From the NCBI RefSeq assembly GCF_051903065.1, contig NZ_CP178438.1: a stretch of 64,000 nt of DNA. One strand, 5' to 3'. Source of the DNA: Escherichia coli. GTDB taxonomy: Bacteria; Pseudomonadota; Gammaproteobacteria; Enterobacterales; Enterobacteriaceae. Under the pieces are notes generated by a model that ran no database searches, was not told the origin of the DNA, and saw only the letters and a list, made by a program, of their open reading frames with translations. Position numbers and translations under genes: made by a program. Of this stretch, positions 11,540-22,204 are shown one piece after another (the first letter of the stretch is position 1; each line of letters starts with the position of its first letter).

Positions 11540-13391
<1,852 letters not shown>

Positions 13392-15997: not shown

Positions 15998-17500
15998 TTA
16001 CCTTTTTCTCCCCCCCAGCAAACTCCCCAACATTCCACGCACAATCTGATTCGTCACCTGGCGGGCGGCGCTTTTGGCCATTGTTCGCACCACACCATCT
16101 TTCTTCCCGCCGCGTGGTCCGGTAGTGCCAAACAAAATATCCTTCAATCCACCAAGAATGCCGTCATCCACCGCCACCTCTTTCCCTTTCACGGCAGGAT
16201 TATTTTGCTGCTCGGTGCTTGCCTGTACGCCTTTTTGCAACATCTCATAGGCGGATTCCCGGTCCACGTCATCCTCGTACTTGCCATACACCGGAGAGTG
16301 ATTAATCAAGCCATTACGCTCATCTTCCGTCACCGGTCCCATCCGCGAACAAGGCGCAATCACCATCGCCCGTTCCACCACAGAAGGACTTCCTTTTGCA
16401 TCGAGAAACGAGATTAACGCCTCGCCGGTCCCCAGTTCCTGGATTGCCTTTTCGGTATCAAATGCAGGGTTGGGGCGCATGGTTTGCGCCGCAGCTTTTA
16501 CCGCTTTCTGATCTTTGGGCGTAAAAGCCCGCAAAGCGTGCTGAACGCGATTACCGAGCTGGCCGAGCACATTATCCGGAATATCAGACGGGTTTTGCGA
16601 AACGAACCAGACGCCCACGCCTTTTGAGCGAATAAGCCTTATCACCTGCTCAATCTTATCCAGCAGTACCTGCGGGGCATCGTTAAACAGCAGATGTGCT
16701 TCGTCGAAGAAAAACACCAGTTTTGGTTTCTCCAGATCGCCCGCTTCCGGCAATTGTTCATATAACTCTGAAAGCATCCACAGCAGGCTGGCGGCGTACA
16801 GTTTTGGCATCTGATAAAGCTTCTCGGCGCTGAGGATATTGATAACGCCTTTACCGTTGGCATCGGTGCGCATCCAGTCTTTGATATCCAGCATCGGCTC
16901 ACCAAAGAAGTGTGCTGCGCCTTGCTGTTCCAGCGACAACAGCCCGCGCTGGATGGCACCAACCGATGCGCTACTGATATTTCCGTACTGATTCTGGAAA
17001 GATTTGGCGTTATCGCCGATGTACTGGGTAATCGCCCGCAAATCTTTAAAGTCGAGCAGTAACAGCCCCTGATCGTCAGCAATGCGGAAGATGATATTCA
17101 GCACGCCAGATTGCACATCGTTGAGATTCAACAGCCGCGCCAGCAACAGCGGCCCCAGGTCTGAAACCGTCGCCCGCACCGGATGGCCTTTCTCGCCAAA
17201 GATATCCCACACCACCACCGGATTGGCATGCGGTTGCCAGTCATTGACGCCGATATTTTTAAGCCTTGCGAGCAGTTTTTCCGATGCCGTTCCTGCCTGC
17301 GCGATGCCGGTCAGATCGCCTTTCACATCGGCCATAAACACCGGAACACCGATTTCCGATAGAGACTCCGCCAGTTTTTGCAGCGTGACAGTTTTACCCG
17401 TCCCCGTTGCGCCAGTAATCAGCCCGTGACGGTTAGCCATTCCCGGCAGTAAAAATAGTTCTGTGTCCGGCGTGCGGGCAATTAACAGGGGTTCGCTCAT
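15998..17500 (-). CDS. yjgR: DUF853 (HerA/FtsK-like) P-loop ATPase
   Basis: Walker A GATGTGKT; start [12 protein letters not shown] at 17498-17500 with GAGGAAA RBS (track ORF extends to 17548). Confidence 0.88.
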
Positions 17501-17629
17501 GAGATTTCCTCCAGTTTCCTGCCTGGAGTATAGGCAACGGCTGCGCACTCTTCACCGCTAAATTCAGCAGATTGCGAGACGCCTTCCAAAGAGATTTAAG
17601 TGCCGGGCGACAGGCACCCGGCAAAGGGA

Positions 17630-18649
17630 TCAGAAGTCGGCTTTCAGGACCACTCGGTAGCGCGCTTTACCATCGCGCACATGCTTGATGGCGTCGTTAA
17701 TTTTCGACATCGGGAACAGTTCGGTAGTCGGCGCAACCTTGCTGCGGGCGGCAAAGCGCATCAGCTTACGCAACTCATAAGGCGTGCCGGTAGCAGAACC
17801 AGAGACGCTGCGGTCGCCCGCAATTAACGTAAAGGCCGGAACAGACAGCGGCGTGAGGACCGCACCGACCGTATGGAAATTACCGCCATAGGTCAGCGCC
17901 TCAAAATAGGGCTGCCAGTCGAGGCTGACGTTGACGGTGTTGATAATGAGATCAAACTGCCCCGCCAGTGCTTTCAGTGCCTGTGGATCGCGGCTATTCA
18001 CCACTTTATCGGCACCCATCGCCAGCACTTCCTGCTCTTTCGCCGGATTAGAACTAAAGGCCGTCACCTCGCATCCCATTGCGTGCAGAAGTTTTATAGC
18101 GATATGCCCCAGCCCGCCAATACCAATTACCCCAACGCGGCTGGTAGCAGTGATATGGTGCATCAACAGTGGTTTAAAGACCGTGATACCGCCGCACAAC
18201 AGCGGCCCGGCGGACTCGATATCAATATTTTCTGGCAGTGGAATCACCCATTGCCAGTCCGCACGCAACTTCTCGGCAAAGCCACCGCGATTCATAATCG
18301 TCGGCACCGCACCTTGCTCGCAGTTGATCTGATTACCGCTAATACAGGCGTCGCAGTGACCACAGCTACGCGCCGTCCAGCCAATCCCGACACGCTGACC
18401 GACCTGCAAACCTTTATCCTGCGCGGCGCTCCCGAGTGCCACCACGCGACCAATCACCTCATGCCCGGCAACCAGCGGATATTGTGAAAATCCCCATTCG
18501 TTATCGATCATCGACAGATCGGAATGGCAGATCCCGCAGTAATCCACCTGCACTTCAACATCTTGTGGCTTCAGTTCACCGGGATCGTACTCATAAACTT
18601 CCAGTTCGCCGCCTGCTTCTTTTGCGGCATAGCTTTTTATCATCGACAT
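17630..18649 (-). CDS. ahr: NADPH-dependent zinc alcohol/aldehyde reductase
   Basis: MDR zinc motif GHEVIGRV and cofactor motif GIGGLGH; start [14 protein letters not shown] at 18649. Confidence 0.9.
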
Positions 18650-18844
18650 TTTTTGGTCCTTCTCTGGTGTTGTCTGGGAAGTGTAGAGCATGGCAGGGCG
18701 GGGTGCCTGGAGTGTGACAAAGGTTACACATCGCTGTATGCAATGCTGAAAATTTCAGCACTTAGCAAAGTGGGTGCAAGCTGGCGCTTGCATGGTGGCG
18801 TGCGACAGGTATAATCCACAACGTTTTCCGCATACCTCTTCAGT

Positions 18845-18929
18845 GCCGAAGTGGCGAAATCGGTAGACGCAGTTGATTCAAAATCAACCGTAGAAATACG
18901 TGCCGGTTCGAGTCCGGCCTTCGGCACCA
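18845..18929 (+). tRNA. leuX: tRNA-Leu(CAA)
   Basis: GCCGAAGTGGCGAAATCGGTAGACGCAGTTGATTCAAAATCAACC...GGTTCGAGTCCGGCCTTCGGCACCA, 85 nt with long variable arm and encoded CCA. Confidence 0.97.
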
Positions 18930-18967: not shown

Positions 18968-19115
18968 TGCCTGAAATCCAGTGTTTATCTACCTTTCCCG
19001 CTATATTAACTCTCTCAAGGTCAACCGATATCAACGTACATCTACCAACATATGTTGGTACAGATGATGGTATTTCCGGTTCGATAATGCTTGTACCAAC
19101 AGGGAGGGAATACGC

Positions 19116-20381
19116 ATGGCATTAACAGATATCAAAGTCAGAGCAGCCAAGCCAACGGATAAGCAATATAAGCTGACTGATGGTGGCGGTATGCATCTGC
19201 TTGTCCATCCAAATGGTTCTAAGTACTGGCGTTTGCAGTACCGTTATGAGGGAAAGCAAAAAATGCTGGCACTTGGGGTTTATCCTGAAATCACACTAGC
19301 GGATGCCAGAGTACGTCGTGACGAGGCGCGTAAGCTGCTTGCGAATGGCGTCGATCCGGGAGACAAAAAGAAAAATGATAAGGTTGAACAGAGTAAAGCA
19401 CGAACCTTTAAAGAAGTCGCGATTGAGTGGCATGGCACCAATAAAAAGTGGTCTGAAGATCACGCCCATCGTGTGCTAAAAAGTCTGGAAGATAATCTTT
19501 TTGCAGCGCTTGGTGAACGTAATATCGCTGAGTTAAAAACTCGAGATTTATTAGCACCCATTAAGGCCGTAGAAATGTCTGGACGTCTTGAAGTGGCCGC
19601 TCGTCTTCAGCAGCGCACTACAGCCATCATGCGCTATGCAGTGCAAAGTGGGTTAATTGATTATAACCCGGCACAAGAGATGGCTGGGGCGGTTGCTTCC
19701 TGTAATCGACAACATCGTCCCGCGCTTGAATTAAAGCGCATCCCTGAGTTGCTTACAAAAATAGATAGCTATACTGGTAGGCCGCTAACCCGATGGGCGA
19801 CAGAACTCTCTTTGCTGATCTTTATTCGGTCCAGTGAGCTGCGTTTTGCTCGTTGGTCAGAGATCGATTTCGAAGCGTCTATATGGACTATCCCACCGGA
19901 GCGGGAGCCTATTCCTGGAGTGAAACATTCCCATAGAGGCTCAAAAATGCGTACAACGCATCTAGTGCCTCTTTCAACGCAAGCTCTTGCAATTTTAAAG
20001 CAGATAAAACAGTTTTGTGGGGCCCATGACTTGATATTTATTGGTGATCACGATTCGCACAAACCCATGAGTGAGAATACGGTAAATAGTGCGTTACGGG
20101 TCATGGGGTATGATACAAAAGTAGAGGTTTGTGGTCATGGCTTTCGAACAATGGCCTGTAGTTCATTGGTCGAATCAGGTTTGTGGTCTCGTGATGCTGT
20201 TGAACGTCAGATGAGCCACATGGAGCGAAATTCAGTGAGGGCCGCGTATATCCATAAAGCAGAGCATCTGGAAGAACGCCGCTTGATGCTACAATGGTGG
20301 GCCGATTTTCTGGATGCAAACAGAGAAAAATTTATCAGTCCATTTGAATATGCAAAGATTAATAATCCATTAAAACAGTAA
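19116..20381 (+). CDS. int: P4-type tyrosine integrase
   Basis: 421-aa ORF next to tRNA; C-terminal catalytic region HGFRTMACSSL...RAAYIH. Confidence 0.9.
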   Translation: MALTDIKVRAAKPTDKQYKLTDGGGMHLLVHPNGSKYWRLQYRYEGKQKMLALGVYPEITLADARVRRDEARKLLANGVDPGDKKKNDKVEQSKARTFKEVAIEWHGTNKKWSEDHAHRVLKSLEDNLFAALGERNIAELKTRDLLAPIKAVEMSGRLEVAARLQQRTTAIMRYAVQSGLIDYNPAQEMAGAVASCNRQHRPALELKRIPELLTKIDSYTGRPLTRWATELSLLIFIRSSELRFARWSEIDFEASIWTIPPEREPIPGVKHSHRGSKMRTTHLVPLSTQALAILKQIKQFCGAHDLIFIGDHDSHKPMSENTVNSALRVMGYDTKVEVCGHGFRTMACSSLVESGLWSRDAVERQMSHMERNSVRAAYIHKAEHLEERRLMLQWWADFLDANREKFISPFEYAKINNPLKQ

Positions 20382-20704: not shown

Positions 20705-22204
20705 TTACCTGTGGTCCGGAAGAATAAGTGGCTGCGGTTTCAGACTGTCTGCCGGCACATTTTTCTCTCCGTTAAAAACCATAACGGGTTCATTATCTTC
20801 GTCTGTCAGCGGATTGAATGGCGGTATATTTTCGGTACGAATACCGGTCAGCCACTGAAAAATGCCTGCGAAATTACGGGCACTGATTTTCCTGCTGACG
20901 GACTGATGAGACGTGATGTCACTGGCGGTAATAATCAGGGGAACGCTGTAGCCCCCCTGCACATGACCATCATGATGAACAGGATTAGCACTGTCGCTGA
21001 CCGACAGCCCATGGTCAGAAAAGTAAAGCATTGCAAAGTGACGGGAATGCCGGCGAAGGATACCATCAAGCTGACCGAGAAAGTTATCCAGTTTACTGAT
21101 GCTGGCGAGGTAACAGGCAATCTTTCGGGGATACTGCTCCAGGTAATAATTCGGCCAGGAGTTAAGTCGGTCACACGGATTCGGATGAGAGCCAATCATG
21201 TGCAGGAAAATCACCTTCGGCGAGGATTTATCCGCCAGCGCACGTTCTGTTTCCTGTAACAACAACATGTCATCCGTTTTACGGGAAGCGAAGCTGCCTT
21301 TCTTGAGGAAAACGGTATGCTCCGCATCAGAAGCAATAACAGAGATGCGTGTGTCATGCTCTCCCAGTTTTCCCTGATTGGATATCCACCATGTGCTGTA
21401 TCCTGCTTTTGCTGCCAGCGCCACCACGTTGTTGCCGGAGTCAGGGTTCTGCTCATAGTCATAAATCAGTGTCCGGCTCAGGGAAGGTACGGTACTGGCT
21501 GCTGTCGATGTATAGCCGTCAATAAATAAACCGGGAGCAGTATTCAGCCACGGCGTGGTTGGCACGGGATAGCCATATACCGACATATAATCCCTGCGCA
21601 CACTCTCACCAGTAACGATAACAATCGTGTCATACAACGGCACACCCGGCAGGATTTTCCAGTTATCAGCCCCGTGCTGACTCAGTTGTTTATAACGCTG
21701 CATTTCACGCAATGTGTCAGTTGTCCCCACAACAGTTCCTTTAACCATCCGCAACGGCCAGCTGTTTACAGAGCATAATACGAATAGCAGCAGTGCCAGC
21801 CAGTTACGGTGACCGCGGTGGTGTGTCCGCCAGAAAATCACCATGAATACCAGAATCGCGGCACTGACCAGAAAATGATAAACAGGAATCATCCCGGTAA
21901 ACTCTGCAGCCTCATCAGCCGTGGTCTGCAGCAACGCGACAATAAAACTGTTGTTGATTTTACCGTACGTCATACCCGCAGGCGCATACAGTGCACAACA
22001 GAACAGAAATAACAGCGCTGTAATGGATGTGAGGGTATTTCTGTGTGCAAGGAGAAGAAGGAGAAACAGAAGCAGCACATTTCCTGTGGCATTCTTCTCA
22101 GTGTATCCGCATGCAATTGTGGTTATTGCAGAAACAACAAAAAAGAATAAAAACAATAAAATCCGGGGTGTGTTTCCCGGACAAAACAGTTTTCTGATAT
22201 TCAT
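20705..22204 (-). CDS. Membrane-anchored sulfatase-family protein (phosphoethanolamine-transferase-like)
   Basis: N-terminal multi-TM segment then soluble domain with metal-binding-type motifs (TGESVRRD, HMIGSHPNP); family call from memory of architecture only. Confidence 0.55.
   Translation of the reverse strand: MNIRKLFCPGNTPRILLFLFFFVVSAITTIACGYTEKNATGNVLLLFLLLLLAHRNTLTSITALLFLFCCALYAPAGMTYGKINNSFIVALLQTTADEAAEFTGMIPVYHFLVSAAILVFMVIFWRTHHRGHRNWLALLLFVLCSVNSWPLRMVKGTVVGTTDTLREMQRYKQLSQHGADNWKILPGVPLYDTIVIVTGESVRRDYMSVYGYPVPTTPWLNTAPGLFIDGYTSTAASTVPSLSRTLIYDYEQNPDSGNNVVALAAKAGYSTWWISNQGKLGEHDTRISVIASDAEHTVFLKKGSFASRKTDDMLLLQETERALADKSSPKVIFLHMIGSHPNPCDRLNSWPNYYLEQYPRKIACYLASISKLDNFLGQLDGILRRHSRHFAMLYFSDHGLSVSDSANPVHHDGHVQGGYSVPLIITASDITSHQSVSRKISARNFAGIFQWLTGIRTENIPPFNPLTDEDNEPVMVFNGEKNVPADSLKPQPLILPDHR

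Follow-up and report, generated by a model that had tools for sequence, protein, structure and literature searches.

Gene organization of the yjgR–ahr locus

The DNA analyzed here, referred to as the window, is a 64,000-nucleotide stretch of an Escherichia coli genome (RefSeq assembly GCF_051903065.1, contig NZ_CP178438.1). The region of interest is the intergenic spacer that separates yjgR from ahr, both encoded on the minus strand. The yjgR start codon occupies positions 17498–17500 (CAT on the plus strand; the ATG reads 17500–17498) and the ahr stop codon occupies positions 17630–17632 (TCA on the plus strand), in agreement with the list of open reading frames. The spacer between them, 17501–17629, is 129 bp long, matching the ~130 bp given in an earlier note made from the sequence, and the single hairpin described there, TGCCGGGCGACAGGCACCCGGCA, was located at 17601–17623. 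The features of the locus are:

15998–17500, minus strand: yjgR, a HerA-like P-loop ATPase of 500 amino acids; left flank of the site
17501–17539, minus strand: 39-bp yjgR-proximal part of the spacer, common to idn-less and idn+ alleles
17540–17629, minus strand: 90-bp part private to the idn-less allele, comprising the yjgR upstream region (~17540–17597) and the ahr-distal hairpin
17601–17623, minus strand: hairpin that begins 7 nt past the ahr stop codon, with a GC-rich stem of 8–9 bp and a 5-nt loop
17630–18649, minus strand: ahr (yjgB), an NADPH-dependent aldehyde reductase of 339 amino acids; right flank of the site
18845–18929, plus strand: leuX, tRNA-Leu(CAA), identified by ARAGORN, 195 bp beyond ahr; a genomic-island integration site
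19116–20381: P4-type integrase open reading frame of 421 amino acids, after leuX

The name yjgR follows the annotation of the RefSeq genomes that match the region. The YjgR protein gives weak matches to NCBIfam families of the HerA/CedD/VirB4 type and shares 98% amino acid identity with K-12 YjgR. Ahr scores 553 bits against the NCBIfam equivalog NF047908 (cutoff 470), and the RefSeq annotation concurs. The genes lptF and lptG lie upstream in the window. The holC–pepA spacer, at window positions 11574–11871, contains a 98-bp tandem repeat (3.1 copies, 91% matches) with REP-like units; in strains E29 and 98201 this spacer is only ~133 bp long. The island that follows leuX carries an intact gene for a 499-amino acid phosphoethanolamine transferase (20705–22204, minus strand); in K-12 the corresponding gene is a pseudogene disrupted by an IS element. 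The genome closest to the window, 23CRST027, agrees with it at 99.5% as far as position 19084 and no further, and has beyond leuX a type I restriction-modification system, unlike the window's island.

Comparison with the K-12 locus

The genes in the K-12-lineage genome O16:H48 PG20180063 follow the order lptG, yjgR, idnR, idnT, idnO, idnD, idnK, ahr, leuX. This confirms the arrangement idnR-idnT-idnO-idnD-idnK between yjgR and ahr that the earlier note had given, and so the note's refuting condition, a different gene order in K-12, does not apply. Within the cluster, the K-12 annotation comprises idn genes only, with no integrase or transposase. The proteins of the K-12 locus that were matched by tblastn in the 64-kb window are LptG, YjgR and Ahr only; IdnR, IdnT, IdnO, IdnD and IdnK are absent from it (E ≤ 1e-20, coverage of at least 50%). 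The claim that this strain lacks idn at the yjgR–ahr site thus stands, and the absence extends to the full 64 kb searched. The direct search covered the window, and the population counts given below would make a copy elsewhere in the strain's genome very unlikely. The strain is predicted to be without L-idonate catabolism and is expected to retain gluconate use via GntI. This phenotypic expectation (no use of L-idonate, use of gluconate through GntI) is drawn from published pathway knowledge.

The junction is not the clean presence/absence junction that had been proposed. The 39 bp at 17501–17539 are the sole part of the spacer matched in idn+ genomes, and K-12 has 5,087 bp in place of window positions 17540–17629. 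The alignment with K-12 resumes at 17630, which places the homology break precisely at the ahr stop codon; the K-12 idnK stop codon is only 3 bp from that of ahr. Because 90 private bp stand where K-12 has 5,087 bp, the difference between the empty and the idn+ alleles is, as judged from the alignment, a replacement (90 bp for 5.1 kb) and not a clean insertion or deletion.

The 129-bp spacer was searched by blastn-short against idn clusters from three sources: E. coli, Salmonella and four species of Citrobacter. No idn remnants were found in it, the matches being the common 39 bp and chance 10–14-mers with E values of at least 0.66. The idn cluster of K-12 is not bracketed by repeats, direct or inverted, and no repeat family has copies at both boundaries; the comparison with K-12 that the earlier note had suggested thus yielded neither scars nor repeats at the junction. 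A match of 11 out of 12 nucleotides, CCGGCAAAGRGA, was observed between the K-12 idnR-side spacer and the last 12 nt of the empty spacer, and 14 of 2,000 shuffled sequences matched as well. It could mean an insertion at the ahr stop codon together with a separate deletion of ~77 bp, rather than one replacement. A second microhomology candidate, CAAAGAGA, is present at 17586–17593. Given this rival and the poor conservation of the CCGGCAAAGRGA motif in Citrobacter idn+ alleles, breakpoint microhomology was dropped as a clue to the origin of the junction.

Contents of the spacer

Read in the sense of ahr, the hairpin has the form GCCGGGUG-CCUGU-CGCCCGGC, followed by a weak T-rich tail. The U-tract in this tail, ACUUAAAUCUCUUUGG, is interrupted, and the terminator scan takes the hairpin only with a shifted stem of 7 pairs. 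The hairpin is the one terminator-like site that the scan detected (on the minus strand; 1 found as against 0.7 expected). Its folding energy is −16.7 to −17.3 kcal/mol (z = −1.4), and 15 of 200 shuffled sequences fold equally well. By folding energy alone the hairpin is no better than chance, and its support is its conservation. The position is kept in eight Escherichia and Citrobacter sequences, in which 91% of the cells are paired, compared with 38–53% when the partners are slid, and compensatory changes occur in 3 of the 9 pairs. As a GC-rich stem-loop located directly after a stop codon, which is the arrangement of an intrinsic terminator, the hairpin is probably, on weak support, the intrinsic terminator of ahr.

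The yjgR-proximal segment, 17501–17539, holds the Shine–Dalgarno sequence GGAGG, the inverted repeat CTCCAG..CTGGAG of the 5′ UTR, and the motif TTGCCTATACT. This motif is conserved over most of the Enterobacteriaceae loci compared and is likely the −10 element of the yjgR promoter. A consensus scan returned no canonical sigma-70 promoter for yjgR, and the promoter assignment of TATACT is by conservation only. In the transcript, the inverted repeat (17503–17531, minus strand) reads CUCCAG-N8-CUGGAG, with its 3′ arm overlapping the GGAGG ribosome-binding site. The repeat is kept in Escherichia and, at 5 bp, in Citrobacter, and it may modulate translation.

Over 57 nt of the 90-bp segment, conservation between E. 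coli and C. werkmanii is ~81%, as counted on the alignment. This level equals that of the coding flanks and suggests constraint, as would fit a spacer that holds something more, namely an unannotated small RNA or a small protein specific to idn-less strains. Such an element is nonetheless very unlikely: the covariance models of Rfam 15 give no match at E ≤ 1 in 17350–17800, the sole open reading frame in the spacer is a 63-amino acid TTG frame that overlaps the yjgR start, and the yjgR regulatory region, which is conserved also in genera with a different neighboring gene, accounts adequately for the conservation. The spacer is better read as ordinary intergenic DNA, in which a hairpin that would terminate ahr is followed by the putative ancestral upstream and promoter region of yjgR and its 5′ UTR.

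Frequency of the alleles in E. coli

The idn-less spacer (criterion, at least 80% of the 129 bp) is present in 3,211 of 5,426 complete E. coli genomes (59%), and yjgR and ahr are contiguous across a 2.2-kb query in 3,212 of the 5,426. The full K-12 idn cluster (at least 80%) occurs in 2,039 of the 5,426 (38%). The absence of idn is the majority state in E. coli, and K-12 is therefore the less common type. The search with the idn cluster gave 5,042 places in 5,026 genomes, and the idn-less genomes matched just the 39-bp flank; on these grounds, idn is essentially never sited elsewhere in E. coli. A third allele, in the 80–90% identity band, was seen in ~146 complete genomes and combines the idn-less spacer with a truncated ahr. 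It keeps the first 79 bp of the empty spacer and has lost most of ahr, of which a pseudogene fragment of ~236 bp is left (for example, loci L003, 9001–9333, and L004, 10002–10334, both equivalent to window 17580 to ~18640).

Genomes with the empty spacer include O157:H7, O145, O111:H8 and O45:H2 strains, Nissle 1917 and ATCC 8739. Nissle 1917 is reported to be without idnK-idnDOTR and K-12 and CFT073 to have the cluster (PMC7924626). Among ST131 strains, JJ1886 and S250 are without idnK and SE15 has it (PMC5369007). The idn genes occur in 83% of pks+ genomes versus ~31% of pks− genomes (PMC8545132), and L-idonate GO terms differ among STEC (PMC4216125). The idn cluster is thus an accessory locus already described in published work (Nissle 1917, ST131, the pks pangenome), and its absence is already known.

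The same slot in other Enterobacteriaceae

A scan with Ahr of one genome per species (GTDB representatives) yielded 80 loci, the arrangements of which were typed by tblastn. Across the family, no fewer than three different contents are found in the ahr–yjgR slot:

ahr immediately next to yjgR (empty): E. albertii; C. werkmanii, C. portucalensis, C. sedlakii and other Citrobacter
ahr, idnK, idnD, idnO, idnT, idnR, yjgR (idn+): C. amalonaticus, C. braakii, C. youngae, C. gillenii and others
decayed idn with idnK alone intact: Salmonella enterica subsp. arizonae (locus L043, 11020–13890)
another gene, for dihydroxyacetone kinase, in the slot: Enterobacter, Lelliottia, Leclercia, Kluyvera, Yokenella, Trabulsiella and others

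The kinase is an ATP-dependent dihydroxyacetone (glycerone) kinase of 548 amino acids that matches TIGR02361 at 576 bits; an example is found in Enterobacter cloacae (locus L032, 11113–12759), with equivalents in loci L026–L081. Damaged loci were also observed. In Escherichia sp. MOD1-EC7003 (locus L048, 6650–11090), which represents a divergent lineage of the genus, only a fragment of idnT is left and yjgR is almost entirely gone. The annotated idnO of E. coli 2013C-4974 (locus L091, 5527–7345) has an internal stop, and its idnD and ahr have frameshifts, all of which could be sequencing errors.

The empty spacer aligns end to end with those of E. albertii and six idn-less Citrobacter species. 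Its yjgR-proximal portion, TTGGAA..CGCAA..GAATTTA..GTTGCCTATACT, aligns with the yjgR-upstream region of the kinase-bearing genera, and homologous yjgR–dak intergenic regions are present in Enterobacter, Lelliottia, Kluyvera, Yokenella and Trabulsiella. All idn+ alleles have, at the aligned position, the 3′ sequence of idnR and a different spacer of ~40 bp. These idnR–yjgR spacers of E. coli, Citrobacter and Salmonella arizonae are mutually homologous and have a common breakpoint.

Origin of the two alleles

The GC content of the idn genes is 47.3%, compared with 54–56% in yjgR, ahr and lptFG. Because the empty spacer has homology in outgroups, the idn+ alleles have a common breakpoint and the GC content of idn is low, the empty allele looks ancestral in type and the idn+ allele derived, a direction drawn from ~60 bp of non-coding outgroup homology and from base composition. 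Since the idn+ spacers of three genera are homologous and break at one point, the comparison indicates that the idn+ allele arose once. The window's spacer is, on the same alignments, an intact empty site of ancestral type and not a deletion scar, which excludes deletion of idn in place as the origin of its junction.

That an ancestor of this strain had a K-12-like cluster that was cleanly excised to leave the 129-bp spacer is accordingly an extremely improbable account, even though idn clusters do decay (Salmonella arizonae, MOD1-EC7003, E. coli 2013C-4974) and close relatives can be opposite in idn state, as are Nissle and CFT073. The junction is not derivable from an idn+ allele by removing DNA, as 17540–17629 has no counterpart in idn+ alleles and a deletion cannot make 90 bp that those alleles lack. 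These 90 bp have homologs in the spacers of E. albertii and Citrobacter and, for part of their length, in those of Enterobacter-type genera, and no idn remnant is left beside them. Moreover, one spacer is common to all 3,211 idn-less genomes, which independent deletions would not recreate. The alternatives offered by the earlier note, that the strain never acquired the pathway or cleanly lost it, are thereby narrowed: loss by deletion in place falls, and inheritance of the empty allele, or its regain by recombination, remains.

The overall explanation that we favor, and consider very probable, is that E. coli as a species has long been polymorphic for the presence or absence of the GntII/idn locus, and that the window carries the empty-site allele in intact form. 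A lower-GC cassette of ~5.1 kb would have replaced 90 bp, from the ahr stop codon to 7 nt upstream of the yjgR TATACT motif, in one event that would be no younger than the ancestor shared by Escherichia, Citrobacter and Salmonella. Both alleles would have persisted since, with homologous recombination via the conserved flanks yjgR and ahr moving them between lineages. The window strain would then be without idn through an empty allele that it inherited or received by recombination, with no deletion of idn in place.

Diversity and movement of the alleles

The idn genes of E. coli and Citrobacter are 77–84% identical in nucleotide sequence and 47–59% identical at third codon positions, and the flanks are 81–87% and 53–69% identical, respectively. 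A recent import of idn from Citrobacter was rejected on the basis of this 77–84% identity, a divergence like that of the flanks. The idn genes of MOD1-EC7003 are 96.4–97.9% identical to those of K-12, in line with the 97.0–97.2% identity of lptFG, so that idn is old in Escherichia. Within E. coli, among the matches listed for the 2,039 idn+ genomes (a spread sample), the lowest full-length idn match to K-12 is 99.0%.

Pairwise differences were computed for 12–16 E. coli genomes taken at even steps down identity rankings, a sample that is neither random nor phylogenetically controlled. The mean and maximum nucleotide differences in this sample are 5.0% and 7.3% for yjgR, 3.7% and 5.5% for ahr, 1.6% and 2.5% for lptG, and 0.63% and 0.96% for the idn cluster. 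Both core genes that flank the site, yjgR and ahr, vary unusually strongly within E. coli and are mosaic; in some strains, the polymorphic sites of a haplotype block at nucleotides 183–216 of yjgR agree almost throughout with those of E. albertii. Recombination and polymorphism are high in the yjgR–ahr region, for which the nearby leuX island site gives a context.

The tables of polymorphic sites contain no fixed differences between idn+ and idn-less genomes beside the junction, and the 5′ haplotypes of yjgR are common to both. The existence of two non-recombining allele lineages was rejected, as flank differences within and between the two states are similar and haplotypes cross the states. 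Homologous recombination via yjgR and ahr would repeatedly swap the alleles between backgrounds, and the opposite states of Nissle and CFT073 agree with such swapping.

This raises the possibility that the window strain descends from an idn+ lineage to which an idn-less E. coli donor later passed the empty allele by homologous recombination in yjgR and ahr. The flank haplotypes are mosaic and common to both idn states right up to the junction, idn state is patchy among close relatives, the window's yjgR–ahr haplotype is rare (2 of 5,426 genomes at 99% identity or higher), which fits a recombinant history, and leuX, an island integration site, is situated 195 bp beyond ahr. However, no idn+ ancestor was identified for the window strain, and the empty allele is that of the majority (59%), for which plain vertical inheritance is at least as likely; the idn diversity of at most 1% suggests in turn that it was the idn+ allele that spread more recently. 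We regard such an allelic replacement as possible, if on the unlikely side; were it true, the strain would have undergone a recent functional loss despite the ancestral type of its sequence.

Escherichia and Citrobacter have both alleles, with identical breakpoints, and Salmonella arizonae has the idn+ form as well. From one genus to another, each allele differs to about the same degree as the core genes at its flanks. A more speculative extension of the favored explanation, which we put forward as rather doubtful, is that idn presence/absence is a long-lived trans-species polymorphism, its alleles having coexisted or been exchanged only anciently since before the genera split, possibly under niche-dependent balancing selection. 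The low diversity of the idn cassette within E. coli, at most 1%, would then look like a recent horizontal sweep across E. coli backgrounds.

For the strain itself these results have little import, as its idn-less configuration is a common one at a sugar-acid locus already known to be accessory. The correction that they bring is that K-12 is the minority and apparently derived type, and that the locus is not to be scored as a strain-specific loss. What is added here to the published record is the replacement of 90 bp by 5.1 kb, an empty allele that is no deletion product, and the occurrence of both alleles in Citrobacter with identical breakpoints and polymorphic flanks. With two well-defined alleles, breakpoints that coincide in three genera and very diverse flanks, the yjgR–ahr site is of modest value for population genetics and could serve to study the gain and loss of accessory operons by a core backbone through homologous recombination.

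Comparison with known systems

The K-12 counterpart is the GntII locus (subsidiary gluconate/L-idonate), idnK-idnDOTR, which occupies the same slot as in the window, between yjgR and ahr and followed by leuX. The window has none of its five genes and, instead of 5,087 bp, a 90-bp spacer of ancestral type.

The junctions of E. albertii and the idn-less Citrobacter (C. werkmanii, C. portucalensis, C. sedlakii and Citrobacter sp. R56) have a homologous spacer of 129–150 bp and share with the window the hairpin straight after the ahr stop codon and the motifs upstream of yjgR. These spacers have diverged from that of the window about as far as the flanking genes, and their hairpin stems differ by compensatory changes. 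The ahr–dak–yjgR loci of Enterobacter, Lelliottia, Kluyvera, Yokenella and others have the window's flanks and the yjgR-proximal part of its upstream region, whereas their slot is filled by the kinase gene.

Published E. coli strains that share the idn-less state of the window are Nissle 1917, the ST131 strains JJ1886 (H30) and S250 (H22), and the O157:H7 genomes. The window's spacer is 98.5% identical to that of Nissle 1917 and equally to those of O157:H7. The window differs from these strains in its rare yjgR–ahr haplotype, with only two of the 5,426 complete genomes matching positions 16500–18700 at 99% identity or higher, and in the island beyond leuX.
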